Source: an uncultured Eubacteriales bacterium
Lineage (GTDB): Bacteria > Bacillota > Clostridia > RGIG6154
Direction: 5' to 3'
NCBI GenBank assembly: GCA_964568815.1
Contig: CAZMRY010000001.1
Coordinates: 14,055-78,054 of the forward strand
Length of the DNA: 64,000 bases
Shown here: one piece after another, positions 2,734 to 62,192 of the stretch
Numbering within the stretch: the stretch's first letter is position 1
How the letters are laid out: the number at the start of each line of letters is the position of its first letter
Made by a program: the position numbers and the translations under genes
Notes under the pieces: model-generated
The model's database searches: none
Told to the model about the DNA's origin: nothing
Seen by the model: only the letters and a program-made list of their open reading frames with translations

Positions 2734-2869
2734 TCAAGCATCCTTCCTGAAATAATATTAAATATATATCCTACGCTATCACTAGAAATATTTTAATATT
2801 TTTTCGTATTCTTTGCATTGATTCTTTATACCATTTCAGTTAAATTTTTCTTGCTATCTATCTTTTGAT

Positions 2870-28029: not shown

Positions 28030-28305
28030 GATATTGCACTTGATATTATGTATGGCGGAAGAGGAACAGACGCTTACAATCAGGCAATGTCTACAAAAGT
28101 ATCTGAGTACAGCGATAAGGCACAAGGGACTGACCTTCTTGAAAAAGAGCTTGTTGCTGAATTTACAAGAACACAGCTTTCAAATGAGGGAGTTGTTGAA
28201 AGAATAGTTAAGGAAAACAGAAATGTTGCAACAAAAATCTACAATGCTCTTAAAAAAGCCTACACAAACATCAAAAATAAGCTTCAGGGAAAAGAAACTA
28301 GATAA
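28030..28305 (+). pseudogene. remnant (~92 codons) of a giant polyvalent-protein gene paralogous to 39859-49599
   Basis: DIALDIMYGGRGTDAYNQAMS...KELVAEFTRTQLSNEGVVERIVKENRNVATKIYNALKKAY aligns to the giant protein ...IAFDIMYGGENTDSYKEAYNT...KELVANFTMKRLDEKVINRIVMQNRNVAVRMFNALKAAY. It lies on the opposite strand from the giant gene, with in-frame stops on both sides. Confidence 0.7.
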
Positions 28306-28370
28306 GTGTATCGGTGAATTCAGAACACCCTAAAAACGGCACATATTTGATAAATTTAATATTAAACTAC

Positions 28371-28408
28371 ATAAAACCCTGCTTTGCTTGATGCAAAACA
28401 GGGTTTAT
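28371..28408 (-). terminator. bidirectional rho-independent terminator downstream of the catalase 3' segment
   Basis: ccctgctttgc(ttgat)gcaaaacaggg forms an 11-bp stem with one mismatch. It is flanked by an A-run on one side and a T-run on the other. Confidence 0.6.
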
Positions 28409-28451
28409 CGATGGTCTGAAATCCACTTCAAATTGAAGTAGATTTTATTGT

Positions 28452-28850
28452 CTAAAAATACTTCTTGCTATTCATCAAACACTGAATATTGTTTAATGTT
28501 TCACCAAAGCGTTGGAAGTGAATTACTTCACGCTGGCGGAGGAATTTAAGTGGTTCTAATACATCGTAGTCATCGCAGAGATCCATTAAATATTCGTAGG
28601 TTGCTCTTGCCTTTTGTTCTGCAGCCATATTTTCGGATAGATCGGTTATTGGGTCTGAGGTTACCTGAAGTGTTGCCGCAGAAAACGGATCGCCTGACGC
28701 AGACATTGGATATGCTCCGATACCATGGTCTACATAGGCATCTCCGTATGCGTTTTTGATTTGTTCCCTTGTTGCGCCCTTTAATAGCTGTCTTACCATT
28801 GTGCAAACAATTTCTTGATGTGCCAGTTCTTCCGTACCTACATCGTGTAT
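28452..28850 (-). CDS. manganese catalase / CotJC-like protein, 3' (C-terminal) segment of a split gene
   Basis: ...GTEELAHQEIVCTMV...GDPFSAATLQVTSDPITDLSENMAAEQKARATYEYLMDLCDDYDVLEPLKFLRQREVIHFQRFGE matches the CotJC/Mn-catalase family. Codons upstream of DVGTEE within ORF 28452..28928 are element-derived and not genuine. Confidence 0.8.
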   Translation of the reverse strand: MHDVGTEELAHQEIVCTMVRQLLKGATREQIKNAYGDAYVDHGIGAYPMSASGDPFSAATLQVTSDPITDLSENMAAEQKARATYEYLMDLCDDYDVLEPLKFLRQREVIHFQRFGETLNNIQCLMNSKKYF

Positions 28851-29082
28851 ATAATGCTCCTTTATATGAAAATGCCCTGAAACTCGCTCAAATACAGGTG
28901 TTTGAGCGTTGCCTGAAATATGGGACATGCCCTGAGTATGTAAGAAAAATCAAGGCAAAAGAACCTGAAATGATAGTAAATGTAAAGCTATCTGTAAATT
29001 GAAAATTAATTCAGACCAATTTGGGCGGAATTTAATTAGTCCCAATTTGGGACACATTTTTTTGCAGTATAAGAGGAACTAA

Positions 29083-32071: not shown

Positions 32072-32080
32072 GAGGAAGCT

Positions 32081-34600
32081 ATGTTAAAGTTTGATGTAAA
32101 AAGAAAAATCAATACCTTGCGGGATATTTTGGTTGGCAAAGTACCTGACCCGAAGGCACAGGTTGAACAAATTACCATTGCAATGATTTATAAATTTATG
32201 GATGATATGGATATTGAAGCAATGGAATTTGGTGGTGAACGTGTATTCTTTAAAGGCGAATACGAAAAATATGCGTGGTCAAATCTTATGAGTCCTGAAA
32301 ATAGCGGACAGAAAAGAGCAATGATTTATGCTGAGGGTATTGAAAAAATGGTAATGAATCAGAATATACCCCAGCTATTCAGAGATATATTCAGAGGTGC
32401 ATATATACCATACAGAGACCCCGAAACTCTTAATATGTTTTTAAAAGAAATCAGCGATTTTTCTTATGATAACAGCGAGGATTTGGGGAATGCCTTTGAG
32501 TATTTGCTTTTAATAATGGGTAGTCAGGGCGATGCAGGGCAGTTCAGAACACCGAGACACATTATTGATATGATGGTTGAAATTGTTGACCCGAAGAAAA
32601 ATGATACAATTCTTGATCCGGCGTGCGGAACAGCAGGATTTTTGATAAGTGCTTATAAGCATATCAAAAATACAAATGTGGACGAGAACGGAAATTCAAC
32701 CCTGACACCTGATGACAGAAGACGATTAACCGATAATTTTGCAGGATATGATATTTCTCCCGATATGGTTAGATTATCAAGAGTTAATATGTATTTACAC
32801 AATTTTACTAAACCTAACATAAGTGAATACGATACTCTTACAAGCGAGGAAAAATGGGATGATAATTATGATGTGATTCTTGCAAATCCTCCGTTTATGA
32901 CACCAAAAGGCGGTATTATGCCTCATAGACGATATATCACAGAAGCAAAACGCTCAGAAGTGTTATTTGTAGATTATATTGTTCAGCATTTGAATACAAA
33001 CGGAAAGGCTGCCATTATTGTTCCTGAAGGTATAGTTTTTCAGTCACAGTCTGCATATAAAAAGATTCGCCAAATACTTGTAGATGATGATTTTCTTTAT
33101 GGTGTTATTTCCTTGCCTGCCGGAGTTTTTAACCCTTATAGTGGTGTAAAAACAAGCATTTTGTTAATTGACAAAACACTAGCAAAGCAGAAAGATGATA
33201 TTCTTTTTATTAAAATGAATAATGATGGATTTGATTTAGGGGCACAACGCAGAGAAATAAAGAAAAATGATATTCCTGACATTGTTAATATCGTTAAGGC
33301 ATATCAAGAGAGTGAAGATGTCAGCGACAATCCGATTGTTACTTTGGCTGATAAGAAAAGGATTTGCGAGCAGGATTATATCCTTGTTGGAGAACGATAT
33401 AAACAAGATAGAATGATTGATAGCAAGTGGGAAATGGTCAAATTAGGCGACTTGTGTGATTTGCAAAATGGTTATGCATTTAAATCTTCTGATTATATTG
33501 ATTGCTCAAACACTTTAAATTTTAGAATGAGTAATATTAGACCGGATGGAAACGTGGATTTAGAATATGCAAAAAAACATCTTCCAAATGAGTATGCTGA
33601 AAAATTTCCAGAATATATCTTGTCATCAGGGGATGTTGTAATAGCGATGACCGATATGGCTAATGACCCCCAAATATTAGGAGTTCCAACTATTATCCCA
33701 GAACATTATGGTACATTACTTTTGAATCAGCGTGTAGGTAAATTCATAAATATCAATTGTGAAAAGTTGTATGTGCCATTTTTAAAACATGTACTTAATT
33801 GTGATACGGTGAAAAATTATTATAAATCACTCAGTGGCGGAGGATTGCAAATTAATTTAAGCAAAAAAGACTTATTACAACTACAAATTCCTGTTCCTCC
33901 ACTATCAATTCAGAGAGAAATTGTTGATGAAATAGAAAGTTATCAAAAAATTATTGACGGTGCAAGGCAAATTGTGAATAATTATAAGCCAACTATCAAG
34001 ATTAACCCTGAATGGGAAAATGTTGAAATTGGAAGTATGTATGATATTAGTTATGGTGTTACCATTTCTATTCCGCAAAATGAAGATGAAAACGGAATCA
34101 AAATTATATCTACTGCTGAGGTTGGTTTAGATGGACAGCTTGATTTGTCAAATATAAGAAAAGTACATTACGATAAAAAGTATGAAAAATTTGTTTTAGA
34201 GCCTGATACATTGCTATTTAATTGGAGAAATGCTCCAAAACACGTTGGTAAAACAGCTTGGTTTTTACAGGAGGACGATAAATATATAAGTGCCTCATTC
34301 TTGTTATCGTTGAAAAATAAAAATCCTAAATGTTACGATAATGGGTTTGTGTGGTGTGCTTTAAACAACCTTCGTGAAACCGGTTATTTTATGAGAAATG
34401 CAAGACAGGCTGTAAATCAAACGAATTTCAACGGGGACCAGCTTTCAAAAACAAAAATAGCTATACCAAATATAGAGGAACAACAGCATATTATGAAAGG
34501 CATATATGAGGAAATGGTTATTGTTGAAAAAAATAAGAGGTTGATTGAAATTTTTGAACAAAAAATAAAGGATAAAATTTCAGAAGTTTGGGGTGATTAA
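32081..34600 (+). CDS. fused Type I R-M methyltransferase-specificity protein (HsdM N-6 adenine MTase domain plus two HsdS-like target-recognition domains)
   Basis: SAM-binding motif I LDPACGTAGFL and motif IV VILANPPF. C-terminal tandem TRD-like segments (KLGDLCDLQNGYAFKS... and VEIGSMYDISYGVTIS...) each show HsdS conserved spacing. 839 aa. Confidence 0.75.
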   Translation: MLKFDVKRKINTLRDILVGKVPDPKAQVEQITIAMIYKFMDDMDIEAMEFGGERVFFKGEYEKYAWSNLMSPENSGQKRAMIYAEGIEKMVMNQNIPQLFRDIFRGAYIPYRDPETLNMFLKEISDFSYDNSEDLGNAFEYLLLIMGSQGDAGQFRTPRHIIDMMVEIVDPKKNDTILDPACGTAGFLISAYKHIKNTNVDENGNSTLTPDDRRRLTDNFAGYDISPDMVRLSRVNMYLHNFTKPNISEYDTLTSEEKWDDNYDVILANPPFMTPKGGIMPHRRYITEAKRSEVLFVDYIVQHLNTNGKAAIIVPEGIVFQSQSAYKKIRQILVDDDFLYGVISLPAGVFNPYSGVKTSILLIDKTLAKQKDDILFIKMNNDGFDLGAQRREIKKNDIPDIVNIVKAYQESEDVSDNPIVTLADKKRICEQDYILVGERYKQDRMIDSKWEMVKLGDLCDLQNGYAFKSSDYIDCSNTLNFRMSNIRPDGNVDLEYAKKHLPNEYAEKFPEYILSSGDVVIAMTDMANDPQILGVPTIIPEHYGTLLLNQRVGKFININCEKLYVPFLKHVLNCDTVKNYYKSLSGGGLQINLSKKDLLQLQIPVPPLSIQREIVDEIESYQKIIDGARQIVNNYKPTIKINPEWENVEIGSMYDISYGVTISIPQNEDENGIKIISTAEVGLDGQLDLSNIRKVHYDKKYEKFVLEPDTLLFNWRNAPKHVGKTAWFLQEDDKYISASFLLSLKNKNPKCYDNGFVWCALNNLRETGYFMRNARQAVNQTNFNGDQLSKTKIAIPNIEEQQHIMKGIYEEMVIVEKNKRLIEIFEQKIKDKISEVWGD

Positions 34601-35789
34601 TTTGGGAGCTGATGAGATCCGCAAAAATCTTGGCGAAGCATTATCTATATTTGCAAAAACAGTAGAAAATGTAACAAATTCAATGGATGTAGAAGCAACA
34701 GTAGCGTACAGAGATTTTGTAGATGATTTGATGTCATATTTTCCAATGACCAAAGTAAATACTCAAGCAGGTACTTATGACCAATACCTACAAGATTTAA
34801 GAAAAACTGTTGTCGATAATTATGATAAAAATAATTATCAGGTAGCATATTTTTATGCCCACTTGATTTTTATGAGTTATATTTATTACTCGGTTGAATT
34901 AGCTTATAGATTTTTGCCGCAAAAGACAAAAGACCAATACGATATGATAAATGCTTATAGTGGAAATAATAAACCTAATATCGCAGACACTCCCAATGTT
35001 TATTCGTTCAGTAAAATACCCGAAAAAGAAATTTTTAAAGTGTTTTATGCTATTGGCATGGATGTGCAATACATTCAACAGCTTTCATCGTATGTTAAGG
35101 AACGTGATGACTATGCACATGCTACGGGAAAAGGAAATATAGATGATGATGCTTTTAAAACTAACATTAAAACTGTAAAAAGAAATATGGGTACAGTTCA
35201 TAAATTGTTTCAACCATACATCAAAGATAAATATATTGCTTTTTTAATAGATAAGTGTGAATTGTCTCACGAAACAGTTGAAATGGCAATTTCTGATTAT
35301 ATTGTTGATGAAAATTTTTCATATCAGGATATTGATTACCTATGTAATTTAGGAATTAGCAATATAAGAAACGAAAACGATATATTTAAAAGTAAATATA
35401 GTTTGGTAAGAAAAGTTCATTGTGCTTTTATTGAACATTGCATAGAAACTTATGGTATTTCCGAGCCAACCAATTTAGGTAATCTAAGAAACGATACATA
35501 TTTATATTTTAAATACAAAGACAATGCAGAGAAATACATTGAAAGAGAACTCGGAATAAATGGCTACGAATGTGTTAAAAACGGCGGAGAGTTCCCATTG
35601 TATGAGTGTCCTGAATGTGGCGAGGAGCAGTTGGCTCACAATGTAGAAAACGGCAAATTCCATTGTTTTCATTGTGATGAGGATTACACTTCTGAAACAT
35701 TGACATTTTGTTCTCGTTGCGGAGCATTGACAGGAAAAAATGAAATGGATATATGTAAAAACTGTATTGAGGATATGGTGGAAGAATAA
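34593..35789 (+). CDS. hypothetical protein with C-terminal tandem Zn-ribbons, translationally coupled to the R-M methyltransferase gene
   Basis: The start overlaps the hsdMS stop by 8 nt. The C-terminus reads YECPECGEEQLAHNVENGKFHCFHCDEDYTSETLTFCSRCGALTGKNEMDICKNCIE, four CxxC pairs. There is no recognisable catalytic motif in 398 aa. Confidence 0.5.
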   Translation: MINLGADEIRKNLGEALSIFAKTVENVTNSMDVEATVAYRDFVDDLMSYFPMTKVNTQAGTYDQYLQDLRKTVVDNYDKNNYQVAYFYAHLIFMSYIYYSVELAYRFLPQKTKDQYDMINAYSGNNKPNIADTPNVYSFSKIPEKEIFKVFYAIGMDVQYIQQLSSYVKERDDYAHATGKGNIDDDAFKTNIKTVKRNMGTVHKLFQPYIKDKYIAFLIDKCELSHETVEMAISDYIVDENFSYQDIDYLCNLGISNIRNENDIFKSKYSLVRKVHCAFIEHCIETYGISEPTNLGNLRNDTYLYFKYKDNAEKYIERELGINGYECVKNGGEFPLYECPECGEEQLAHNVENGKFHCFHCDEDYTSETLTFCSRCGALTGKNEMDICKNCIEDMVEE

Positions 35790-35790: not shown

Positions 35791-35829
35791 AAAAAATCTG
35801 CATCTCTATTAAAGAAATGCAGATTTTTT
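35791..35829. terminator. bidirectional terminator between convergent genes
   Basis: aaatctgcat(ctctattaaaga)atgcagattt with T/A runs on both sides. Confidence 0.55.
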
Positions 35830-36475
35830 ATTTCAAAGGATTTTCAAGTATATCTTCAATATTACAACCGAGAATACGGGAGAGTTTATAAAGGGTTTGA
35901 GCTTGTGCTTTGTCAATATCGTTGACTTTTTGTTCATACATTTGGATTGAACGGAGCTTAACGCCTGACATTTCTGCAAGCTCGGACTGAGATATTCCTC
36001 TGCTTTCACGGATGCGTTTTAGCTTTGTTTCAAGCTCGGCTTTGTTATAAAAGCTCTCCATACTGTCTATAAATTGAGTTATATCCATTTCGTGATAAAC
36101 CGAGTACATAGAAATAATTTCAGATAGCGGAATACGTTCAAAAATATCTTTGAAGCGATGTCCCGATGCCCACTGATATTCAGCGAGTGCCCAGCCTGCC
36201 CAATACTCGGGCGAGGCTCCTTCGCTATTTGTTGCAGGGGGTATTTTTTTATCCTTATACGCTTTTTTTATTATTTCACGTGCAAGCTCAACACCCGACA
36301 TTCCTGAAATTACAGCCGGATTTCCACTTTCAAATTTTTGTGCATATCCCGTTGTAACAAAGAGCGAAGCAATCCAATTTGCTTTAAACCCGCAGTCGTT
36401 TATGGCATAGTCAAGCATATCTGCAAGACATTCCTTTGCATCATTCAAATATAATCCGCTGTATGCGTGAGTCAT
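35828..36475 (-). CDS. hypothetical protein with C-terminal XRE HTH
   Basis: 215 aa whose C-terminus ESRGISQSELAEMSGVKLRSIQMYEQ...LYKLSRILGCNIEDIL is an XRE-type HTH. It overlaps the upstream gene by 35 nt. Confidence 0.5.
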   Translation of the reverse strand: MTHAYSGLYLNDAKECLADMLDYAINDCGFKANWIASLFVTTGYAQKFESGNPAVISGMSGVELAREIIKKAYKDKKIPPATNSEGASPEYWAGWALAEYQWASGHRFKDIFERIPLSEIISMYSVYHEMDITQFIDSMESFYNKAELETKLKRIRESRGISQSELAEMSGVKLRSIQMYEQKVNDIDKAQAQTLYKLSRILGCNIEDILENPLK

Positions 36476-37139
36476 CGTTTTTCAGCTCCTCTCTCAGAAT
36501 ATCCATTACAAAAATGTCATCTCGGTAGGATTTACTCTTTTTTATTTCCTGACGGTATGTTTTTCTTGCTGTTGTATCTCTGTCAAGAAATTTTGGATAA
36601 TAGATGCTTTTGTCAACTGGTGATGCATCTATAAATTTAATTTGTTCAAATGCTTTTTGTGATACCAAAACAGTCTGTTCTCCGAGCTTACCGAGCTTTA
36701 ATGCCTGATTTAAGCTGCGAAGCGGAAGTCCGTTTGACACAAAGCTTTCTGCATATCGAAAATATGAATCATCAGCACGATAGCCGACAATCACATCATA
36801 GCTTGATGTATCAATAGAATAATGCTCTATGATATATTCTCTTGCATCAACGGCTATTTCAGAACTCAGCTTGAATGTGCGATATTTAAGGAGTATGGCA
36901 ATCCAATTCAAAACAGTATGATTTCCGTCCATTAAATTTAAGGTTTTAAGTCCGTCAGTATTTAATGTATAACGGTTTATAAATCCGTCTGTGTTCTGCT
37001 TGCAAGCCCATTCCTTTGCCATTTCCTCTGAGCGTGTGCAGTAAAAGCCTTTTCCGTAATCATTATGCTCATTTCCTATATTTATATCTGGTATCTCTAT
37101 AATGTGGTCTGTTCCGTGAAGTAAAGTTATTGTATTCAT
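36441..37139 (-). CDS. hypothetical protein, DUF3990-like (N-terminal LLHGTD...DYGKGFYCT motif)
   Basis: 232 aa. The motif is reminiscent of the DUF3990 family, which co-occurs with small partner proteins on mobile elements. That assignment is from memory only. Confidence 0.4.
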   Translation of the reverse strand: MNTITLLHGTDHIIEIPDINIGNEHNDYGKGFYCTRSEEMAKEWACKQNTDGFINRYTLNTDGLKTLNLMDGNHTVLNWIAILLKYRTFKLSSEIAVDAREYIIEHYSIDTSSYDVIVGYRADDSYFRYAESFVSNGLPLRSLNQALKLGKLGEQTVLVSQKAFEQIKFIDASPVDKSIYYPKFLDRDTTARKTYRQEIKKSKSYRDDIFVMDILREELKNDDSRIQRIIFE

Positions 37140-39356: not shown

Positions 39357-39614
39357 ATGTTAAACTTAATCAAAAGAGCAGTTGGAGACACATTGTATCA
39401 AACAAGAATACAAAATGGACTATCGCAAGAGAAAATGGCCGAAAGGTGCTTTATGTCTTACAGGCAATACAATGACCTAGAAAACGCCAAACGTTTACCC
39501 ACACTTAATTCTTTTATAGATATTGTAATTGCTTTTGATATAAATGTCAACTCAATAATTAAATTAATCAAGGAAAGGGGGTACTTTCCCAATGATGACA
39601 AAAACTCGGCATAA
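39357..39614 (+). CDS. XRE-family HTH protein
   Basis: 85 aa with QTRIQNGLSQEKMAERCFMSYRQYNDLENAKRLPTLNSFIDIVIAF as the HTH, and SD CAAGGAGCG. Confidence 0.5.
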   Translation: MLNLIKRAVGDTLYQTRIQNGLSQEKMAERCFMSYRQYNDLENAKRLPTLNSFIDIVIAFDINVNSIIKLIKERGYFPNDDKNSA

Positions 39615-39828
39615 ATACAAATACACTTACCGCAAAGAGTTTCATAGCGATTTAAACGGCTATGTTGCTTATGGTATTGAACTTACATCAGGTAATTATC
39701 TTCTTGGTTATTTTCCCGATGTCTTTCTTGAAGAACAGAAGGCAAAGGATTTTGTAAATATGTGCACTAAAGAACAGATTGAACCAGGGCAAATGCAGGA
39801 TGCTATAGAAGAAGCTTTACTATGCTAA
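39592..39828 (+). CDS. hypothetical protein (78 aa)
   Basis: Overlaps the upstream gene by 23 nt. It has no recognisable motif. Confidence 0.35.
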   Translation: MMTKTRHKYKYTYRKEFHSDLNGYVAYGIELTSGNYLLGYFPDVFLEEQKAKDFVNMCTKEQIEPGQMQDAIEEALLC

Positions 39829-39833: not shown

Positions 39834-39860
39834 AGAGGAGCATTTCCGCTCCTCTGTTTT
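39834..39860. terminator. bidirectional rho-independent terminator
   Basis: agaggagc(atttcc)gctcctct is an 8-bp perfect stem with a T-run on the plus strand and an A-run upstream. It abuts the giant gene's stop codon. Confidence 0.65.
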
Positions 39861-42800
39861 AGTTTAGAAGGTTATATATTCTGTTAGCTCGGTTGAGTGG
39901 TACTCCGATTTTGCGAAGTCTTGATATTTTATCTACCTTCTTACTTCCCTTTCCATCCTTTTGACTATTCATAACCTTAGTCACATAATAGAAAGTTCTT
40001 GCATTCATAGAATTCTCACCATAGTTTTGAATATATGCGTCATATCCTGCCTGCTGATTTTCTGTAAGACTTGAGTAATAATATCCATCCACACTGCTAA
40101 AATCATATTGTGTTTTTGTTTCCCCAAACAACGCTATATTTACTTCTTGTTTTTCTTCAGGTGAAAGACTGTTGTCATTCGCAAGTGCTTCTCTCTTTAT
40201 AACTGAAAGTTCAGGCTCATATTCCCATTTTTCGTATACTTTTTTTGTTCTGCCATCTGTCATTGCGAAAAACTTTTCATATTTAGTTTCTTTGCTCACA
40301 TCATCATGCACATCATAATCATAATACAGTTTAGCAACCTTTTCAGGTGCAATACCAAAATCAATTAAATCCTGTGCTTTTTCTCTTTTACCTTTTTTGC
40401 CATCTTCACCTTTTGAGTAAAAGCTGATTTCTACTTCCGCCTTTTGTGATGGTGTAAGACCTTTGGTGCTTTCAAGTGTTTCGTGCCTTACCTGAGTTGA
40501 TGTTTTTGATTTGTCGCCGTCTTTTACGCTTTTAGCTTTGCTTGCAGCATTAATTGCATTGTATACATCAGTACGGCTTGTTTTTTTATCTTCTATAATT
40601 CTTTGATAAAGCTCTGTCTGTTCTGATGTCAGACTTCCAAAACCTTCCTCAACCCAACCACGAGAACCTTTTGTAGAACTTTTACCCCAAACTGTAGTTT
40701 TAATTGCATTACCAATGTTTTTGTCTATTGGATATTGCAGTTCTTCTTCACCTTTGTTATTAATTTTATAACTTCCACCTTTGTTGTATGCGTTAATACC
40801 TTCAACTGTCTTTTTGAGCTGTCCTGCTCCCGCCGGTAGAGTTCGATATGATAGAGGTACTACAAACTCGTTAAGAATAATATCCATTTTCTTTTTATTA
40901 CTAACCTTTTTAGGGTCACTAAATATTTTCACAAGCTCTGTTACATCGAACATGCCTGCAGATGCAGGGATTCTGCCGTCAGTTATAATTGATGTGAATG
41001 GTAAATCTTCCAAAACATTTACAACAGAATTTCCAATTGCAACAGCTGGATCTTCTGCTTCATCTTCAAGTTCAATCGCTCCTTCTTCAATTAACATTTC
41101 AATTGCATCAAAAGCATTAGGTACTCTAAGTTTTGTAAAATCATCAATTCCATCAAGAACAATACCAAGAGGGCTTTGTATTCCGTCATTACCAAACCAC
41201 TTTTCAAACAAATCAGCGAGCAATTCTGCAGCTAAACTATATTTGATAAATCTCCACGATGCTCTAACAATCGCTTCCGCCACTCCTTTAGAATCTTTCT
41301 TTGCATATCTGCTTAAATCTTTTGTGATGTTAGATATAAGATTGTTTGTTTCAAGCATATACTGTGTAATTACTTTACCGCTTTTCGAGTAAAAAAGGGT
41401 TGGCATACTTCCATAGCTTCGTCCACCTATAAGCTTTTTTGTATATGCATCCGCCTCTCTTATAGCCTCCTCACTTGGCATATTTCTTTTTACTATATTT
41501 TGATGATATCTTGCTCTCCAAATTAAGCCAGATGTTAGTGCATCTGTAAATTCAAGCGGTTTTCCTATTGCATCCAGAAAATGCTTTGGCTTAGACATCG
41601 TTTTAACTCTATCAGGATTTCCAACCTTAACTCTGTTAGTCAAGAATGTGCTCTTATCATCGAATCCGTCAGGTGTTTTTATATTCTTTAATGTGTGAAA
41701 TATACCATAAGCTAAATCAACGTATGAGAGTTCTTTTCTTGCTTGTGGAATAGTGGCAAAGTTCATAAACGGTGTTTTTGCATTTCCAACAATCATATTC
41801 GCTCCAATCTTACCTTGGAATCTGCTCCAATTTCTCAAAGTTCTTCGACCAAGATTATCTTCAACTACTCTATCCAAAAATCCTACTTGCTTACCTGCTA
41901 ATACATTTGCATATTTATCAAGATTAACAGCGTAGTTTCCAAGCTTATTTTTGTACCCTTCCTGAAGCTTTTCACTTATCTGTTTCAGTTTATCTTCATC
42001 TGTTAAAGTGTCATTCTCACCTATTTCTGCGATTTTCTCTTTAACACCGTCATCTGAATACTTGTATCTTATAGCGTTAGAAAAAGCTCGTACATTCTGA
42101 ATATCATCAGTATGGAAAATAACATCACAAACACCTGTAACATATTTTGCAAAGCCATCTATAGCATCATAGTCTGTAATACTATCTTTACTTCTATGAA
42201 GTGCATTTGCAAGCCATTTAATGCCGGGTTTTCGGTCTGCTGTTCTTCCCATTATTTCTGTAGGTAGACTTGTTACAGTATCAGACATAAAGAATTTATT
42301 CTCCAAATCAAAACCGAAAGCTCGTCCAAGTTCATTTAAGAATGAATCGCCTTTATTTTCAACAAAGTGTGGAAAATAATTTTTTCTGTATTCAACAGGT
42401 GCATATCCGTTCCTGATGCGAGCTTCATTCATCATTTCAAAAAGCTCGTTGTAAATCTTTCTGAATTCACCGATACACTTATCTATCTTGCCATAATCAA
42501 GCTTAGGATTTGCATCAATAAAAACATCTGCATCCCTTTTGAGCTGTGCAAGCTTCTCCCTGTCCTTCTCTATCCAGGATTTCTTACTGTTGACATTCTC
42601 TGCTTTTTGTGATACATTATCAGTGTGAACATCGTTATTCCAAACGTCTTGGACGTACATCTGAGGGACTTTACTGTCATTTAGAGCGGAATCGATGTTC
42701 CATTTTTTATTTATTGCATCTTTCAAGCCTGGAATATCCGGTATTGTTCCTGTAGAGACCTTTATCATTTGCTTATTTGAGAGAATTTTTCCTTTGTCGC

Positions 42801-45800
42801 TTATTGACTCCAAATAATATGTTACTCCATTATGTCTTTTAACATAATATATTCCTTCTTTACCATCAGGTCTCTTGAGATACAAAACGTCATCATAATT
42901 TTCTATAATATCCGGTATTTGTTTTTGGTCTTCAGCTGTAATCGGATATTTCTCCTTCGTAAGCTCTCCGTGTGAATTTTTAATATGCCTTATATCATTA
43001 TCATTCAAAGCATGAAATACATTTGAAACATCAATGCCATACTCTTTTTTTAAATCATTAATCAAACGTTTATTTACTTTTCCTATAATGATTTGTGCTT
43101 TTTGTTTAGGAAACAGATTATTATGTTTTACATTTGTTTCATGCGAATATCTATACGCATAATCGACATAAGATTCTATTTCTTCTTTAGTAGCAATATT
43201 TTTTCTTGTTCCGATGGTTTTATCAAATATTCCCTGTGCTTTTGTATCTTCTTGAATGTCCACTATCTCTCCATTGTCATACTTCGCAAGCTTTTCTTCA
43301 AGATATTCTATTTCGCCCTGCGTTTCTCCGAGAAACTGTACTGCATAAGCTTCACTGTGTTTGTTACCTTTTGCTACCTTTTGGCTAATTTCAAGTTTAT
43401 CAATATCATCAAGAAGCTTGTTTTTATATCTGTTGCTTTCAGCCTCATGAATGTCTATAGGTTCAAAAATCGCCTCTTTAATTGCATCCGCTTCTTCAGG
43501 ATTTGTTGTTATATCTTCTATATTTCTCTCCTGTGTTTCTGTAGCATAGCGAATACCTCCAAAAACTTTTTTGTCTTTCCAATTATCTGAATTTTCAAGA
43601 AGCTTTGTAATTCTTCCAATTCTTTCCGCTCTAACTTTTGTGTTTTCTTTTTTTATTTCTTTTTCAAGGGTTCTCACAGTTCCGTATGCTTCTATGTACT
43701 TATTTATGGCATCTGTATTTAAACCTAATGATTTAATCTTTTCAGACCTTATTGCTCCTGAAATAACCTTTTCCGCAATTTCTTTTTCTTCTTCGGTTAT
43801 GAGCAATTTTCCCATAATCTTTTCTGCGTTCTTTCTTGCTGAAGAAAGTTCACTATATGCGTTTCTAAGATATGCAACCTGTTCTTTTTCATTTCTTTCA
43901 ATCTCAACAGTTGGTTTTTCATCTGCAAGCGAATCATTAAAGTGCTTTACTTCATACAGATGGTCTTTGAATTCATATACTGCCTTTTCAAATTCGTGCT
44001 TTAAGTGTCCCTTTGCTTCATCTGTGTTATAATATGCATCAAGAGTTATTTCTTCTTTTCTTAAGCTGTCCGATACTTCCATTATCTTAAGCATACGGTC
44101 AGATGATGAAAGAATATCATCAGGGAACAGACTTGGGTGCATTTCGTTTAATTCCTGATATATACTGTCAACAGATGTTCCGCTTGTTGAAGAAACAGAA
44201 AGTCTTCCCATATATCTTCTTATGTCCTTAAAGAAATCAGGAATGTCAGCTGCAGACTCGCTGTCAAAGTAAATTTTGGTATTTCTTAGATAGTTTCTTA
44301 AATCTGCATATCCTTTATATGCTTCATCATTTACTATTTTACCGTTTTTATATGCTTCTTCAAAAAGTCTGTCAATGGTTTCCTGTGAAAGCTTGCCTGT
44401 CTTCATATACTCTGTTGACATTTCCTGAATTATAGGCTTTAAAAACTCTCTTGCAGTTCCAAGACGAACAGACATTGCATCTGCTACTTTTCTTACAGCA
44501 TCATTCTCATATCTTTCAAGTCTTGTTCTTGATTTAGCTGTTGACTGATATTCAGGTGCTGTTGTTTCGTTTTCTTCTGATATTACTGCTCCGAGTAAAT
44601 ATTTTTTGTCCTCTTGCATAGAATAATCATTGACAGTTTCCATAGACTGTGGTATATTGTCTATAGAGGTTGACTCATTTATATCTGAAGCACTATTTTC
44701 AGTGTGAGGTAGGTACGAGTCAACCTCTAAATTTATATCATAGAATACATTCCCAAATTTTGCTTTTCCAACTCTAACTACAGAATTAAAAATAACATTG
44801 TCAATTCTCACCTTCCCTCTATAATTCTCAAATCCGTTTTGTTTGAACAACTTATGATTTTTATGGTCTGGGCTTTGCCAATTCGCATTAGCATTCATAA
44901 GAAGGTCTTGAAGGCTGGGGACAAGACGCATTTTTTGATTAAACATTTCAGGATTGTTTTTAAGTAGCTCCGCACTTTCTTCACTGTGTGTAAACTCTTC
45001 TGCACTTAGTCGAATAAAAACAATTTCCTTTCCATTGTTATCTTTCACGGTAACTTTGTTATCACGATTTGCAATCAAATATGAATAAGCTGCATCTCTA
45101 TATTCCTCAGGTGTATTCAAACCTTTAAAAATATCTTTACCGGTCTCAACTATCCAAATGTCATTACCCTTATTGTCTTTCCCCTTATAAGCAGAATAGT
45201 TATCATCCGCAAACACCGTATCATCTCCACCGATATAAGGAACTGTCTTTTTAAGATATTCTTTATCCATTCCTTTTCTGTGAACAACTTCTCTGGCTTC
45301 AATCTCCCCGGCAGTCTTTTCATATAACCCCTGTGCAGTCATAGGTGTGTTATCATCAAGAAGAATAGATTCCTCAAATAAAGAATTGTCATATTCCATA
45401 AATAATAATCCGTAATCTTTATCCTCTGCAAGTTCATCATACAGTCTGTCAATTGTTTCAGGCTTTAGATTTCCGTTGCGTTGTGAATTGTAGTAATTTG
45501 AAACAAGTATTCTAAATCTGTCATCCATTCCTTCGTAAGCTTCTTTTCTCTGCTGTCTTAGTTCTAAAATTCTTCTTTCGTATTTACCTATCTTTCCTTC
45601 TTCTCTTAACTTGTTCTCCCAATAAGCAACACTTGAACCTCTTGCAAACCCTTCTATATCCTGAACTGCATGTTGCACTTCGTGTAGTAATGTATATAAA
45701 GTAAAGCTGTTATCCATTCCGTCTCTAATTGTTATAGTCTTGTTTTTTCTGTCATAGCTTCCGTATTCAGAAATATCTTTCTTAAACACAATTCTTAAAT

Positions 45801-48800
45801 CTTTCAACTGCGGATATGCCTCATAAAGTTCAGGATGGTCAAAATATGCTTCAAGCCTGTCCTGTGTACCTGCGTCAGGTGTTACCTTGCCATTTTGTGT
45901 GAAAGTATTACTCCAGATATTTTTAAGCTTTTCATATTCTTTCTTTTCTGCTTCAGTAAGCTCTCTTCCACCTTCCATTTCAAGAATGTATCTGTTCTGA
46001 ATATCAAGAAGCTCTCTGTATCTCGCATAATCAGGATGGTCTTTCTTAAATACAAGGTCGCCTTTTCTTACAAATCTTGCATTATCATCAGGAATTTCAT
46101 ATCTCCACCTTTTGTCTATTCCTTTATACCAACCTGTCTTTTTGAAGATTTCAGACTGCGGTTCGCCTTTAAGGTTCATTCGCCTTGCCTCTGCCAATGT
46201 CTTATTATTTGCTACAACAGAAGTCTCCCCGCCTAAAAGATGTTGTTTCCCATTACTTCCCTGTGCATCATTCTGACCTTTTTGCATATTATTAGTATTG
46301 ACATTTCCATTAGGATATGTTATTCTTTTTATAGAACCATAGTTGGTTACACCAAACGGCAATTGCAGCCTAGTCCGTGTAAGCCAATTATTGGTTCTTT
46401 TTATATTAGGCTCAACATAAAGAATATCGCTTGTATCTATAATGCTCTGCGTTTGTACAACACTATTAGGGTTATTATTTTTCCTACTATGAGTACTTAC
46501 AACCTTAATTTCATCAAGTACAACACCACTCTTGTCTTTTAATGGCAACAATTCCAAAACAGCCATTATTGGCAGTCCATCAGAATCATAAACCTCTCCA
46601 AACATAGTTATCCTGCTATCAAAACCTTTTGACTGCATAACAATTATTGGCTTCTCTAAAATCTCAGGCACCTGTTTAAGAATATCATCAGTCAAATAGC
46701 TATGTTTTTTTAATGATGTATTGATTTTGTTTGTGTCCCAGGTAATTTTTTGGTCTTTCACTCCAATGCTCTGCAATGCTGAAGATGTCGTTCCTATATT
46801 CAAAGACTGTCTATCAGGTCTCCCATTAGCAACCCAATTATCATAATCATTTACAAAGTTTTCATTAAGCAAATACCTCTTTTCTCCGCTCCCTTCTTTC
46901 GAAAATCTTACATTCCCCTCTTCGTCAACAAAAGGTGTTGCGTTTGAGTTGTCAATTGTTTTTCTTCTTTCTTTTAAGGCTCTGTCAAAGATATCAAGTG
47001 CTCTTTCGATATCACTTAAATCCTGTTCTGTACCTGTTATCGCGCTTTTAACCTTGTTATAAGCAGCTTTAAGAGCATTAAACATTCTTACTGCAACATT
47101 TCTGTTCTGCATTACAATTCTGTTTATGACCTTTTCATCAAGTCTTTTCATAGTAAAGTTGGCAACAAGCTCTTTGTCAATATCTTCTTTACCGCTGACT
47201 TTGTCGCCATATCTTTCAGCTATTGTGTTATATGCTTCTTTGTAGCTGTCTGTGTTTTCACCGCCATACATAATATCAAATGCAATCTTTTTATATGCAC
47301 TATACAAATCACTGTTTTCAATGTTATGTGTTACCTCGTGAAGTGCAACCATCGCACCGAGTCTTGTTTTAGCGTTTGCACTGTTTATGTGAATTACTCC
47401 GTCCTGTACAAATCCCATATTGTCAACAAGCTTTTTATTGCCCATTTCGTCTGTAACTTCAACCGCATCCAAATCTTCAATAACGATTTTTGAATTTGAA
47501 AGCTTTGCAAGACCTTCTATTACTTTAACAGGTGCAGAGTCAGGACTTAAAACCCAATCCTTTGAATATACTGTCACAAGTCCGCTTTTGCTTTGTTCAA
47601 GCTTAAGCCCTTTTTCAACATATCCGCCTGTTATTTCAAAAGGATTATGATTTTCAGACACAACCGAATGTTTAATAATCATACCCGCTTCTTCGTCTGT
47701 CAAAACTTTGCCATTTTCCATTTTCTGTTCAATACGATTAGCAAAATCAACAATTTCCGTATTTGTGCTATTCTTACAATATGTTACCGCATCCGCAATG
47801 TATTCATCAAATAGCTTAGCCTGTTTTACCGTTTTTCCTAACTCTGATGTGTTGACTGTGTCAACAGCATCTCTGTAGCTTGCAATTGCAGATTTAACTG
47901 TACCTGTGCTTCCTGCAGAAATGATAAATCCTGCAAGTGCTGATGATTTCATTTGTGCGAAATCTTCCTTTGTGTATGAAGCAAAATCAAAAGTTTCTTT
48001 CAAAAGTTCAATCGCAGATACTGTTTCACCTCTCTCTGCATGTTTGCCCGCAACAATTTCAGTTCCTGTTTGAAGGAATTCTTCCGCTCCTTCCCCAACA
48101 CCTTCTATTGCTTGTTTGCCTAAAAACTTCATACTGTTTACTGCAATCTGAGCACCTTTTTCGCTCATTTTTCCTTTTCTGAGAATTGCCATTATTCCGT
48201 CTTCGAGTTTTTCAGCCCCTATTTTTTTACTTACGGTTTTCCCTCCAAAGATAAGCTTATCCGCAATATAACTTATTCCAAACTCAAGTGTCGCTTCAAC
48301 AAGTGCTGTGTTTGTTGCAAGTGCTTTTATATCTTCTTCCGACATATCGCTATTTTGAAGAAGTTCTACATATTGACTTCCAACTGTTCTTCTGAACATA
48401 TCAGCTGACGACGCAGCTGCACCTCCTATTCTTGCTCCCGTTAACGGATTACCCATAAAGACACCCAGTGTCGCTCCTGCAAGCTGTCCCACTGCCTGTG
48501 CCTTTGATTGATTTATAAACTGTGGAGCATAGTTTGAAAGTGTAGAAACAAAAGTATCAAAAGCATTATTATCCGTATATGCCTCTTTGTTGTTTTCTCT
48601 TAATCTCTTGTCTAATTGCTGATACACTTCCGCTGCCTCAATATCATCAGTTGCATATTCCCAAGAGTTCGCACCTGTATCCGCAATCTTTTCTCCTATT
48701 GTACCGCTTTTAAAATTTGCTCCTATTCTTCCAAACAAGCCGTCATCATATTCATTATCTTTATTTTCATCATAATACTTATACGCCTTGATTTTATCAT

Positions 48801-49599
48801 CAGCAAGAACTATTTTACCTTCCGTTTTCATATTTCTGTCATATCTTGCCTGTTCATCTCCTACTCTCGCTTCAGAAAGAATACTTATAGGGCTGAACGA
48901 ATAATCTTTTTTATAAAAATTCTGCACCACACCATATTCATTCTTTTCTCTTTGCGCCTCAGATATTCCGCTCCTTGTGTCAACTTCTCCCTTTTTATTA
49001 AGATGCACGCCTTTCGTTTCATTTGCATTTAATATTCCAAGCACAGCATTATATTCTGCCGAAAGTGCATTAAGTCTGTTTCTTTTCCTGTCAAGTGTGC
49101 TGTAATAATTATAGGCTATTTTCTGTTCATCAGTTCCGTATCTCAACACATCAGGATTTGTTTTATATAGATTATATCCACTTTCTTCAACCCCTGTAAG
49201 CTGAGGTAATTGTGCAGTTTCTCTTTGTATCTGTGTAGCAAGCTCATTTTTTCTGTTAATAAAGAAATTCTTACTTCCGTAAGCAGGAATAGAACTGTCC
49301 CTTGTGCTTCTTCTCCAATTATACGCATCTTCATCTATAAAGCTTGATTTAAAGCCGTTATATATAACTTCGTTGTTATCTTTTTGATACTGTGCTTCTC
49401 TTTCTTTTTGTCTATTGTATGCTATGGCTTCAAGTGTTGTAGTTTGTTTCCTTTCAGTTTCAGGCACATAGGCAGTACCTGTTAGCTTTTGAAGATTTAT
49501 TGAATTTCCTTTTACAGGATTATTATAATTTATAACCGCTCCCTGATTTTTCTTCTCTATCTCTTTATTATATTTTAATACATCTGTCAGTTTCTTCAT
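39859..49599 (-). CDS. giant (3246-aa) phage/mobile-element polyvalent-type protein with two zincin-like HExxH motifs
   Basis: Uninterrupted 9.7-kb ORF containing AMVALHEVTHNIENSD and TLLHEVQHAVQDIEG (HExxH). It has long coiled-coil-rich linkers and lies in the same operon as the lysis and virion genes. Confidence 0.75.
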   Translation of the reverse strand: MKKLTDVLKYNKEIEKKNQGAVINYNNPVKGNSINLQKLTGTAYVPETERKQTTTLEAIAYNRQKEREAQYQKDNNEVIYNGFKSSFIDEDAYNWRRSTRDSSIPAYGSKNFFINRKNELATQIQRETAQLPQLTGVEESGYNLYKTNPDVLRYGTDEQKIAYNYYSTLDRKRNRLNALSAEYNAVLGILNANETKGVHLNKKGEVDTRSGISEAQREKNEYGVVQNFYKKDYSFSPISILSEARVGDEQARYDRNMKTEGKIVLADDKIKAYKYYDENKDNEYDDGLFGRIGANFKSGTIGEKIADTGANSWEYATDDIEAAEVYQQLDKRLRENNKEAYTDNNAFDTFVSTLSNYAPQFINQSKAQAVGQLAGATLGVFMGNPLTGARIGGAAASSADMFRRTVGSQYVELLQNSDMSEEDIKALATNTALVEATLEFGISYIADKLIFGGKTVSKKIGAEKLEDGIMAILRKGKMSEKGAQIAVNSMKFLGKQAIEGVGEGAEEFLQTGTEIVAGKHAERGETVSAIELLKETFDFASYTKEDFAQMKSSALAGFIISAGSTGTVKSAIASYRDAVDTVNTSELGKTVKQAKLFDEYIADAVTYCKNSTNTEIVDFANRIEQKMENGKVLTDEEAGMIIKHSVVSENHNPFEITGGYVEKGLKLEQSKSGLVTVYSKDWVLSPDSAPVKVIEGLAKLSNSKIVIEDLDAVEVTDEMGNKKLVDNMGFVQDGVIHINSANAKTRLGAMVALHEVTHNIENSDLYSAYKKIAFDIMYGGENTDSYKEAYNTIAERYGDKVSGKEDIDKELVANFTMKRLDEKVINRIVMQNRNVAVRMFNALKAAYNKVKSAITGTEQDLSDIERALDIFDRALKERRKTIDNSNATPFVDEEGNVRFSKEGSGEKRYLLNENFVNDYDNWVANGRPDRQSLNIGTTSSALQSIGVKDQKITWDTNKINTSLKKHSYLTDDILKQVPEILEKPIIVMQSKGFDSRITMFGEVYDSDGLPIMAVLELLPLKDKSGVVLDEIKVVSTHSRKNNNPNSVVQTQSIIDTSDILYVEPNIKRTNNWLTRTRLQLPFGVTNYGSIKRITYPNGNVNTNNMQKGQNDAQGSNGKQHLLGGETSVVANNKTLAEARRMNLKGEPQSEIFKKTGWYKGIDKRWRYEIPDDNARFVRKGDLVFKKDHPDYARYRELLDIQNRYILEMEGGRELTEAEKKEYEKLKNIWSNTFTQNGKVTPDAGTQDRLEAYFDHPELYEAYPQLKDLRIVFKKDISEYGSYDRKNKTITIRDGMDNSFTLYTLLHEVQHAVQDIEGFARGSSVAYWENKLREEGKIGKYERRILELRQQRKEAYEGMDDRFRILVSNYYNSQRNGNLKPETIDRLYDELAEDKDYGLLFMEYDNSLFEESILLDDNTPMTAQGLYEKTAGEIEAREVVHRKGMDKEYLKKTVPYIGGDDTVFADDNYSAYKGKDNKGNDIWIVETGKDIFKGLNTPEEYRDAAYSYLIANRDNKVTVKDNNGKEIVFIRLSAEEFTHSEESAELLKNNPEMFNQKMRLVPSLQDLLMNANANWQSPDHKNHKLFKQNGFENYRGKVRIDNVIFNSVVRVGKAKFGNVFYDINLEVDSYLPHTENSASDINESTSIDNIPQSMETVNDYSMQEDKKYLLGAVISEENETTAPEYQSTAKSRTRLERYENDAVRKVADAMSVRLGTAREFLKPIIQEMSTEYMKTGKLSQETIDRLFEEAYKNGKIVNDEAYKGYADLRNYLRNTKIYFDSESAADIPDFFKDIRRYMGRLSVSSTSGTSVDSIYQELNEMHPSLFPDDILSSSDRMLKIMEVSDSLRKEEITLDAYYNTDEAKGHLKHEFEKAVYEFKDHLYEVKHFNDSLADEKPTVEIERNEKEQVAYLRNAYSELSSARKNAEKIMGKLLITEEEKEIAEKVISGAIRSEKIKSLGLNTDAINKYIEAYGTVRTLEKEIKKENTKVRAERIGRITKLLENSDNWKDKKVFGGIRYATETQERNIEDITTNPEEADAIKEAIFEPIDIHEAESNRYKNKLLDDIDKLEISQKVAKGNKHSEAYAVQFLGETQGEIEYLEEKLAKYDNGEIVDIQEDTKAQGIFDKTIGTRKNIATKEEIESYVDYAYRYSHETNVKHNNLFPKQKAQIIIGKVNKRLINDLKKEYGIDVSNVFHALNDNDIRHIKNSHGELTKEKYPITAEDQKQIPDIIENYDDVLYLKRPDGKEGIYYVKRHNGVTYYLESISDKGKILSNKQMIKVSTGTIPDIPGLKDAINKKWNIDSALNDSKVPQMYVQDVWNNDVHTDNVSQKAENVNSKKSWIEKDREKLAQLKRDADVFIDANPKLDYGKIDKCIGEFRKIYNELFEMMNEARIRNGYAPVEYRKNYFPHFVENKGDSFLNELGRAFGFDLENKFFMSDTVTSLPTEIMGRTADRKPGIKWLANALHRSKDSITDYDAIDGFAKYVTGVCDVIFHTDDIQNVRAFSNAIRYKYSDDGVKEKIAEIGENDTLTDEDKLKQISEKLQEGYKNKLGNYAVNLDKYANVLAGKQVGFLDRVVEDNLGRRTLRNWSRFQGKIGANMIVGNAKTPFMNFATIPQARKELSYVDLAYGIFHTLKNIKTPDGFDDKSTFLTNRVKVGNPDRVKTMSKPKHFLDAIGKPLEFTDALTSGLIWRARYHQNIVKRNMPSEEAIREADAYTKKLIGGRSYGSMPTLFYSKSGKVITQYMLETNNLISNITKDLSRYAKKDSKGVAEAIVRASWRFIKYSLAAELLADLFEKWFGNDGIQSPLGIVLDGIDDFTKLRVPNAFDAIEMLIEEGAIELEDEAEDPAVAIGNSVVNVLEDLPFTSIITDGRIPASAGMFDVTELVKIFSDPKKVSNKKKMDIILNEFVVPLSYRTLPAGAGQLKKTVEGINAYNKGGSYKINNKGEEELQYPIDKNIGNAIKTTVWGKSSTKGSRGWVEEGFGSLTSEQTELYQRIIEDKKTSRTDVYNAINAASKAKSVKDGDKSKTSTQVRHETLESTKGLTPSQKAEVEISFYSKGEDGKKGKREKAQDLIDFGIAPEKVAKLYYDYDVHDDVSKETKYEKFFAMTDGRTKKVYEKWEYEPELSVIKREALANDNSLSPEEKQEVNIALFGETKTQYDFSSVDGYYYSSLTENQQAGYDAYIQNYGENSMNARTFYYVTKVMNSQKDGKGSKKVDKISRLRKIGVPLNRANRIYNLLN

Positions 49600-49640
49600 A
49601 AAAGCATAGCGGTACTTTAAACAGTACCGCCGCCTCCTTT

Positions 49641-50675
49641 CTATAATATAAAGTCTTCTGTGCCGTCATTTCCCTCCGGATTGGCACTTGGTCCGGAGGA
49701 ATTCTTAAAATTTACTGCAAGCTTGGAATCTTTCAGGAAATCAAAATACATCTGACTCGCCCTTTCAGGCGTAACTCCCCAAATCTGTGCAAGTCTTGTG
49801 AAATTCCCCATGCTTGCATCTTTCAACGCCTGCTCATAAGCAAGCTGTGTCTGCTGGTCGTCATATACCTTTTCATTCCACTGTCTGTCATACATCGTAT
49901 CGGCTCTTGTATCTTCATAAGCCTTCTGCTGATATTCTTTCTGATAATCATTCATTCTTACATTTTCGTTAAAGTTCTGTGTATTAAGCCAAGCATTGTC
50001 AAGATATTGTCTCTGTGACATCTCAAAGTCCCTGTCTGAAAGCATCTTTTCATAGGCAAGTCTTGCAATATCATTTTCCGCATTGGCTTTATTTCTTTCA
50101 GCATCAGCAAGTGCTCCTGCCTTTTGTGCCTCAAGGTCAGCCATTGACTGATTTTTCTGTATCTGTGCCTGATTAAGATTGCTTAAATAGTTATTACCAA
50201 GCTCAATCAACGAGCTTTCCGCAGCTCCCCCTGTTATGCCAAGTGCCGCAAGCTGTTGAGGAAGTGCTTTTTTCTCTTTAAGATACTGATTATAATATGC
50301 TTTAGCTGCGTCCTTATAAGAATTGTCAACCGCAAGCTTGCCTGCCTCATACTGTGAATTTGCTGCAGAGATGGCAGAATTCTGTACAGAGTCTACATTT
50401 TTCTTATATGTATCAACATAACTGTCATAATAAGCATTCGCTTTATCATTATTAACGCCATAGCTTTTTGAATAATCAAACGCAGACTTTTCATCCGCTC
50501 CCTTTAAATAGTTTGCTTCAGTTCCGTAGCCATTCAAAACAAGATTATCATAATACTTTTTCGCGCTATCCTGAGCAAACTGCATTCCTGACGCATCATT
50601 CTTTCTTTTGTAGTTGTTATATTCTCTTTTCCAGTACGCAACTTCGTTTATATCTGATTTAGGATTGTATGCCAT
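49641..50675 (-). CDS. hypothetical phage protein (coiled-coil, Ala/Asn/Gln/Tyr-rich)
   Basis: 344 aa of low-complexity sequence, encoded between the holin gene and the giant gene. Confidence 0.5.
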   Translation of the reverse strand: MAYNPKSDINEVAYWKREYNNYKRKNDASGMQFAQDSAKKYYDNLVLNGYGTEANYLKGADEKSAFDYSKSYGVNNDKANAYYDSYVDTYKKNVDSVQNSAISAANSQYEAGKLAVDNSYKDAAKAYYNQYLKEKKALPQQLAALGITGGAAESSLIELGNNYLSNLNQAQIQKNQSMADLEAQKAGALADAERNKANAENDIARLAYEKMLSDRDFEMSQRQYLDNAWLNTQNFNENVRMNDYQKEYQQKAYEDTRADTMYDRQWNEKVYDDQQTQLAYEQALKDASMGNFTRLAQIWGVTPERASQMYFDFLKDSKLAVNFKNSSGPSANPEGNDGTEDFIL

Positions 50676-62162: not shown

Positions 62163-62192
62163 TTTTTCTCCTCCATCGCTTTCATAATAACA

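Follow-up and report, generated by a model that had tools for sequence, protein, structure and literature searches.

Described polyvalent proteins and the giant gene of the window

Phage polyvalent proteins, as described in 2017 by Iyer et al., combine many unrelated enzymatic domains, including MuF_C, PBECR3, LPD23, LPD3 and zincins, in products of the late virion genes of portal/terminase phages; they are extensively mosaic and are predicted to be injected as effectors (PMC5512222). Experimental support for the predicted role is thin and comes from coliphage N4 gp50, P1 Dar and now phi24B gp47. Each N4 virion contains 4 +/- 1 copies of gp50, which is ejected along with gp51 and gp52; the protein comprises a membrane N-terminal domain, an enzyme, a C1 domain with an HExxH motif, and C2, an orphan helical domain of 110 kDa (PMC13434306). 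The gp47 protein (vb_24B_48, 2807 amino acids, aa) of Stx phage phi24B, described as a polyvalent protein of 2811 aa with MuF-C, was found in purified virions by proteomics and is a proposed ejection protein, for which its authors suggest a role as conduit and in peptidoglycan degradation (bioRxiv 10.64898/2026.04.10.717836). Temperate phages of Firmicutes, and only these, encode the MuF polymorphic toxins (Jamet et al. 2017, PMC5576092). Here we analyzed a giant gene in a 64,000-nucleotide (nt) stretch of contig CAZMRY010000001.1 from an uncultured Eubacteriales bacterium (positions 14,055 to 78,054 of the forward strand; hereafter the window). Its product is a bona fide phage polyvalent protein of the kind described in 2017, and we consider it probable, at roughly 60%, that it is an effector-carrying ejection protein whose gene closes the late operon of a short-tailed temperate prophage, with a P22-type portal and an SU10-type adaptor, in a low-GC, Clostridia-like host.

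The initial annotation had reported a single giant open reading frame (ORF) at the end of a phage late operon and had assigned its product to the polyvalent class, and our analysis bore this out. One uninterrupted ATG-to-stop frame of 9.7 kb encodes 3246 aa; the gene is the last of a minus-strand late operon and lies beside a serine recombinase gene. MuF_C, LPD23, LPD3 and PBECR3 scored above the Pfam cutoffs and were accompanied by a DUF6782 zincin. In total the polypeptide combines LPD23 and LPD3 with a pair of zincins and a pair of PBECR RNase-fold domains, and genes for portal, capsid, adaptor, fibre, amidase and holin lie upstream on the same strand. In domain content, position and mosaicism the protein resembles the class of Iyer et al., whereas its enzymes are carried by the N-module and the core, large conserved modules for which Pfam has no family, PBECR3 lies inside the scaffold and a partner gene, p344, stands upstream. 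No description of the N-module or core modules was found in the text of the 2017 paper (PMC5512222). The protein is a mosaic of unannotated scaffold modules bearing enzymatic or effector cassettes, with PBECR3 within the scaffold, and the giant gene and the p344-family gene form a conserved pair. What is new here is this widespread chassis of scaffold and partner gene with its internal insertion site, which is absent from Pfam, PHROGs, NCBIfam, the Protein Data Bank (PDB) and the known literature that we consulted.

Like N4 gp50 (Schitoviridae, ~3500 aa), the giant protein has an N-terminal region that is probably membrane-active, an enzyme in the middle, an HExxH zincin and, at the C-terminus, a large alpha-helical domain that is an orphan; both genes adjoin smaller genes, which in N4 encode ejection proteins. 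Unlike N4 gp50 it has no RNA polymerase domain, and it belongs to a temperate phage of a Gram-positive host rather than a lytic phage of a Gram-negative one. The gp47 gene of phi24B is likewise from a temperate short-tailed phage, encodes MuF_C, is the last late gene and follows a 421-aa gene by 30 nt, whereas the other domains of gp47 are LPD38, LPD5 and LPD1.

Enzymatic domains and the scaffold that carries them

We scanned the whole protein with Pfam at curated cutoffs and also scanned isolated segments, with a permissive limit of E up to 10. The bit scores above cutoff were 46.7 for MuF_C (aa 960-1064), 67.4 for LPD23 (1122-1176), 33.8 for LPD3 (1497-1620) and 50.2 for PBECR3 (2174-2275). 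DUF6782, a family of putative metallopeptidases, covered the second HExxH motif with 28.2 bits in the isolated segment and 26.5 bits in the whole protein (cutoff 27). The two HExxH motifs noted in the initial annotation were confirmed at aa 754 (ALHEVTHNIE) and aa 1306 (LLHEVQHAVQD), where 0.044 would be expected by composition, and their His and Glu ligands proved to be conserved: H754, E755, H758 and E810 of zincin-1 were invariant in 60 non-redundant homologue sequences, and H1306, E1307, H1310 and E1316 of zincin-2 were conserved in 11. Zincin-1 matched no Pfam family; it has ~90 relatives, in many of which MuF_C follows directly and is usually fused to it. A structural model of zincin-1 (predicted local distance difference test score, pLDDT, 78.6) had five strands followed by the HExxH helix and a helix bearing E810, a predicted topology that is zincin-like. 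The Pfam scans found no RNA polymerase, tape-measure, M23, SLT or lysozyme domain in the protein, neither PHROGs nor NCBIfam had a family for it as a whole, and its N-terminal 1000 aa matched nothing among PDB sequences below E 0.09.

Two internally similar modules of ~110 aa had also been proposed. The similarity stood, since MuF_C and PBECR3 both have the PBECR fold and their profiles align, but the second module had been misplaced: it lies at aa ~2165-2290 and not at 2000-2110. The shared motif falls at aa 966-982 within MuF_C and at aa 2210-2233 within PBECR3. Comparison of the two family profiles gave a probability of 96.7% (E 3e-10, 86 columns) and set H967 opposite H2210 and VST opposite VST, in agreement with Iyer et al., who place MuF-C among the PBECR domains (PMC5512222). 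It is this profile-profile comparison that argues for kinship of the modules; direct pairwise alignment was not significant (score 41 against 32.7 +/- 5.8 for shuffles), and a self-BLAST of the giant protein found no internal repeat. H2210 of PBECR3 was present in 15 of 15 sequences and S2282 in 11 of 12, and K2254 was also conserved. The MuF_C family overall lacks a strongly conserved His. Judged by sequence, both zincins look intact and both PBECR-fold RNase domains have their His and Ser/Thr in place.

The remainder of the protein is dominated by the scaffold. The N-module (aa ~90-650) emerged from an exhaustive HMMER search with the first 950 aa, and its glycine-zipper region gave a weak Pfam match to Gly-zipper (E 0.43). 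Relatives were collected by two word-indexed searches over 5.8 billion clustered proteins. Some 280 giant relatives of 2300-4550 aa have nothing but aa ~2351-3150 in common, with 27-35% identity, and a search with the core by itself added 30 further proteins of 700-1590 aa with the core at the C-terminus. The core measures ~700 aa, or ~1150 aa if helical-A and pre-core are counted with the scaffold, and contains the conserved motifs RNGYxPVxYRKNYFPHF, TDYDAVxGFDRYIE...HTDDIQ and FTQFQLEVNNQ. Its model was almost wholly alpha-helical, with ~45 helices (pLDDT 62; predicted template modelling score, pTM, 0.46). The core matched no Pfam family even at E up to 10 and none in PHROGs or NCBIfam. Against the PDB there was no sequence match below E 0.09, and the best Foldseek match of the model had E 0.2 and a template modelling (TM) score of 0.1. 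When the model was compared with BFVD, the top two matches (E 1e-23 and 9e-23, TM ~0.5) were C-terminal pieces of polyvalent proteins from uncultured phages, and weaker ones were proteins with methylase, helicase, RelA/SpoT or nuclease modules, none of them characterised. No core was found among 72,556 plasmids.

Among the 149 homologues with both flanks, the gap between the pre-core (aa 1993-2100 here) and the start of the core (aa 2351) is always -25 to +42 aa. Since the two are contiguous there and 251 aa apart here, PBECR3 is an insertion within the scaffold. An obligate pairing of N-module and core was ruled out; they occur together in only 5 of 162 long proteins, indicating that they shuffle independently. 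Long coiled-coil or low-complexity linkers, which the initial annotation had described, were not borne out, as no 40-aa window had an entropy below 3.0 bits and charged stretches free of Pro and Gly numbered only three, of ~30 aa each. The supposed linkers at aa 1651-2104 are conserved helical modules that are common to 58-221 other proteins. The suggestion that the protein may hold new effector folds fared only partly better: parts without assignment do remain, but they are mostly the large conserved helical scaffold, which does not obviously represent new effector folds. We consider the scaffold modules worth defining as new families, and genes of the core family are currently annotated as 'hypothetical', 'nuclease' or 'M23 peptidase family protein'. 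The features of the locus are collected in Table 1.

Table 1. Coordinates of the giant gene, its modules and associated features in the window (+, forward strand; -, reverse strand;., both directions)
Feature	Positions	Strand	Remarks
Whole polyvalent-protein ORF	39859..49599	-	3246 aa plus stop
Leader	49600..49640	-	Shine-Dalgarno AAAGGAGG, then 7-bp hairpin with U-rich tail, then ATG; read directly from the sequence
N-module, aa 90-650	47650..49332	-	N-terminal in ~45 other proteins of 2000-4350 aa; no Pfam family
Glycine zipper, G371/375/379/383/388/392	48424..48501	-	Conserved; overlaps the only 23-aa uncharged stretch (aa 367-389)
Zincin-1 domain, aa 730-905	46885..47412	-	HExxH 754-758; Glu810 likely third ligand
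MuF_C / PBECR-fold domain, aa 906-1110	46270..46884	-	Pfam 960-1064; H967 and VST motif align with PBECR3 active-site positions
LPD23, aa 1122-1176	46072..46236	-	Pfam
Zincin-2, aa 1230-1400	45400..45912	-	DUF6782-type; motif HEVQHAVQDIEG at 1306-1317
LPD3, aa 1497-1620	44740..45111	-	Pfam
Helical-A and pre-core, aa 1651-2104	43288..44649	-	Conserved N-terminal part of the C-terminal scaffold; pre-core contiguous with core in homologues
PBECR3 RNase cassette, aa 2105-2345	42565..43287	-	Inserted in scaffold; Pfam 2174-2275; H2210, K2254, S2282 conserved
Core, aa 2346-3050	40450..42564	-	All-alpha; common to all homologues; unmatched in Pfam, PHROG, NCBIfam and PDB
C-terminal tail, aa 3051-3246	39862..40449	-	86% identity to P0170; rare elsewhere
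Bidirectional intrinsic-terminator hairpin	39834..39855	.	Strong; 4 nt past the stop codon of the giant gene
p344, conserved upstream partner	49641..50675	-	N/Q/A/Y-rich; no family match
Orphan remnant of a different allele	28033..28325	+	In host DNA; zincin-1 tail segment joined to first core codons

Late-operon context, the partner gene and rival explanations

The late operon runs from the P22-type portal gene through a RelE/HTH/SecB-like insert and genes of the scaffold region to the major capsid gene, and continues with the SU10-type adaptor, a 914-aa protein (p914), a 995-aa fibre, Amidase_3, holin and p344 to the giant gene; beyond the terminator follow a convergent helix-turn-helix (HTH) gene and the serine recombinase. 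No tube, sheath, chaperone or tape-measure gene lies between capsid and lysis, which makes this a short-tailed temperate phage. A tape-measure protein was ruled out for the giant gene, which matched no tape-measure family and comes after the fibre and lysis genes; where the initial annotation had allowed for a tape-measure-like structural protein devoid of enzymatic modules, domain scans found such modules. No type IV secretion system genes are present around the giant gene, and origin from a conjugative element was ruled out by the prophage context and the lack of a plasmid match. The GC content is about 35% and the nearest relatives come from metagenome-assembled genomes of gut Clostridia.

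To describe synteny we used 100 relative-encoding stretches in species-representative genomes, of which 80 loci, nearly all from gut Clostridia, were kept. In a profile search, a p344-family gene stood directly upstream of the core gene, typically at 10-20 nt, in 45 of the 66 loci with an upstream ORF. Its product may act as a chaperone or be ejected along with the giant protein. The core gene was always co-directional with virion genes and within the late block, either before or after the lysis genes; 18 loci had a p914 homologue upstream of it, and several had homologues of holin, amidase or p344. One locus, L092, has within ~14 kb a terminase gene, a P22-type portal gene, about nine small or medium genes, a gene for a peptidoglycan-binding protein, a core gene (1458 aa, with PBECR3) and a GH25 endolysin gene, and this module lacks tube and chaperone genes. 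A Geobacillus locus has the order XkdX, SLT-like protein, core protein, holin and amidase, and in a phage contig of 43 kb the giant gene is found after the tail-fibre genes and ahead of the lysogeny module. The relatives frequently carry Peptidase_M23 or have peptidoglycan-binding or SLT neighbours, associations that fit envelope-crossing virion proteins, as expected.

Several lines of evidence point to an ejection protein: the polyvalent Pfam domains with conserved catalytic residues, the late-operon context, portal modules that lack a tape measure, the coupling to p344, the absence of the core from plasmids and the presence of its fold in other polyvalent proteins with different effectors. 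The precedents of N4 gp50 and phi24B gp47, the prediction of Iyer et al. and the presence of a terminator instead of an immunity gene downstream point the same way. By analogy with these precedents and from synteny, the protein is probably carried in the virion and enters the host along with the DNA, and anti-defence activity and autoprocessing would be expected of it. In such a scheme the protein would be made late and a few copies would be packed inside the capsid by means of the scaffold modules. At infection it would leave through the short tail, as would p344, either before the DNA or alongside it, and the glycine-zipper N-module would engage the membrane or the conduit. The zincins would then cut the polyprotein into separate pieces, and the freed RNase and LPD domains would act in the first minutes on host RNAs or proteins, possibly those of defence. 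We propose only tentatively, and at below even odds, that the core, the N-module and the p344-family partner constitute an undescribed ejectosome of P22-portal short-tailed phages in Gram-positive gut Clostridia. If so, its largest subunit would be a plug-in chassis in which recombination at defined junctions exchanges effector cassettes, even within the scaffold, and the ejectosome would parallel N4 gp50 and phi24B gp47 by convergence and provide a natural means of modular protein delivery into gut anaerobes. The family also offers a natural experiment in which scaffold and partner gene are constant and the enzymatic cassettes vary.

A number of observations weigh against an ejection protein. 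The likeness to N4 gp50 and phi24B gp47 is only architectural and positional and not one of family: by hhalign the core profile showed no homology to C1/C2 of N4 gp50 (probability 0.05% for N4 alone and 0.47% for a profile of eight schitoviruses) or to phi24B gp47, and the p344 profile was negative against phi24B vb47 and N4 gp51 and gp52. Foldseek did not recover the zincin fold for the zincin-1 model among PDB structures (best E 0.33), the confidence of the core model is modest, and the glycine-zipper segment is only moderately hydrophobic (Kyte-Doolittle value about 1.0). In INPHARED the core occurs in one record only, that of an uncultured faecal phage. The giant gene also has the lysis cassette on one side and the integrase on the other, a position where morons are classically found, and the U-rich-tailed hairpin ahead of it could reflect separate regulation. 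A pairwise BLAST match in the p344 comparisons (E 5e-4) was not upheld by the profile and was discarded.

The protein could instead be mainly a structural ejectosome or conduit component, a Gram-positive counterpart of T7 gp16 or P22 gp20, in which the peptidases attack the cell wall and the RNase-fold domains are inactive binding modules, so that it would be a delivery device and not a carrier of effectors. This would suit the large all-alpha scaffold, which is the only universally conserved part, the M23 domains of many relatives and their PG_binding or SLT neighbours, as well as the proposal made for gp47 by the phi24B authors; the weak conservation of His in the MuF_C family and the thought that MuF-C of Mu is inactive are also in its favor. 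We nevertheless regard it as unlikely, as the giant protein itself has no M23, SLT or lysozyme domain, its PBECR3 retains the invariant H2210, K2254 and S2282, and a turnover of cassettes such as ART, PBECR5, LPD3 and M23 suits effectors in an arms race better than a fixed structural role.

A polymorphic toxin of the MuF style, released with particles or at lysis against competitors while an immunity protein guards the lysogen, seems distinctly improbable, even though MuF_C and BECR RNase domains are typical of toxins, the giant protein is highly mosaic in its modules, and MuF toxins likewise come from Firmicutes prophages and are predicted both to associate with the capsid and to carry toxin or RNase modules (PMC5576092). 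The giant protein lacks the MuF head-morphogenesis domain (no Pfam match to the N-terminal Phage_Mu_F domain even at E up to 10), its variable domains are internal and its C-terminus is conserved, which is the reverse of polymorphic-toxin syntax, and the giant ORF is followed by a terminator, with no co-directional small immunity-like gene seen downstream. We give very little credence to a moron expressed from the prophage for lysogenic conversion or defence, superinfection exclusion for example, that is not a component of the virion. Its position between lysis cassette and integrase, the hairpin ahead of the gene and the type I restriction-modification system and DUF3990 gene just past the integrase would agree with such a role, but relatives have the core gene among the structural genes, ahead of those for lysis, the gene is closely linked to the p344 family at gaps of 10-20 nt, no promoter-like site was noted directly in front of the giant gene, where no search aimed at one was made, and 9.7 kb would be costly, amounting to about a fifth of the typical 40-45-kb genome of this phage type.

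Module turnover, the chromosomal remnant and neighbouring genes

The nearest relative of the giant protein differs from module to module. P0152 is closest over aa 1-905 (83-94% identity) and LPD23 (84%), P0119 over MuF_C (63%), L019 over zincin-2 (37%), P0162 over PBECR3 (56%), P0130 over helical-A (68%) and the pre-core (52%), and L001/P0170 over the core (42%) and tail (86%). Among close relatives the cassettes ART, PBECR5, LPD3 and M23 vary. A second, decayed copy of the gene had been reported at 28030-28305; this copy is real, spans 28033-28325 and derives from a different allele, so that the view of the family as dynamic is supported by both the mosaicism and the remnant. Positions 28033-28296 correspond to aa 772-858 (50% aa and 67% nt identity, E 2e-19), and the 27 nt at 28299-28325 are 100% identical to codons 2372-2380 of the giant gene. 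The remnant has an acyl-CoA ligase gene on one side and a truncated Mn-catalase gene on the other and closely resembles allele P0182, in which zincin-1 is followed by the start of the core within ~250 aa. It is thus what deletion has left of a different member of the family. Its junction falls near the boundary of the PBECR3 insertion in the intact gene, and because both the insertion and the deletion junction fall at codon ~2346-2372, this site appears to accept cassettes. Within 28033-28928 the truncated Mn-catalase (158 aa, profile positions 57-195 of 284) adjoins the remnant, which points to decay of the chromosome at this place, possibly where an earlier insertion ended.

Around the giant gene, the Shine-Dalgarno sequence AAAGGAGG of the leader is 33 nt from the ATG, with the hairpin, which is GC-rich, and its U-rich tail in between; this could be a split Shine-Dalgarno arrangement or an attenuator that limits expression. 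At the other end, a 78-aa ORF at 39592-39828 (+), which has no assignment, follows the HTH gene and converges on the terminator of the giant gene. The gene for p914 (55152-57896, -) follows the adaptor gene; its product, which had no Pfam, PHROG or NCBIfam match, is probably a nozzle or tail-hub protein of this phage group, and NCBIfam also had no family for p344 or the adaptor. The portal ORF (62786-64000, -) contains a zinc-ribbon-like insert, CKKCGEVCMNKVCNCG, and is open to the edge of the window; a truncated portal or a defective prophage was ruled out, as the frame runs through to this edge. Between the portal and the scaffold and capsid genes, 61360-62615 (-) encodes RelE-like (140 aa), HTH/MqsA-like (133 aa) and SecB-like (134 aa) proteins, a trio that looks like a tripartite toxin-antitoxin-chaperone (TAC) cassette, a moron within the structural operon.

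Directly outside the integrase end of the prophage is a type I restriction-modification locus (29546-35789, +) that encodes HsdR (841 aa), a fused HsdM and HsdS (839 aa) and a 398-aa double-zinc-ribbon protein. Adjoining the serine recombinase gene at 35828-37139 (-) are genes for an HTH protein (215 aa) and a DUF3990 protein (232 aa), the latter with weak similarity to ART-PolyVal (E 0.005); these two could be prophage cargo or a separate islet. On the phage contig of a relative (L081/L082, 2133-3853), an RVT_1 reverse transcriptase gene and a CBM_5_12 gene beside the tail-fibre genes are probably a diversity-generating retroelement.

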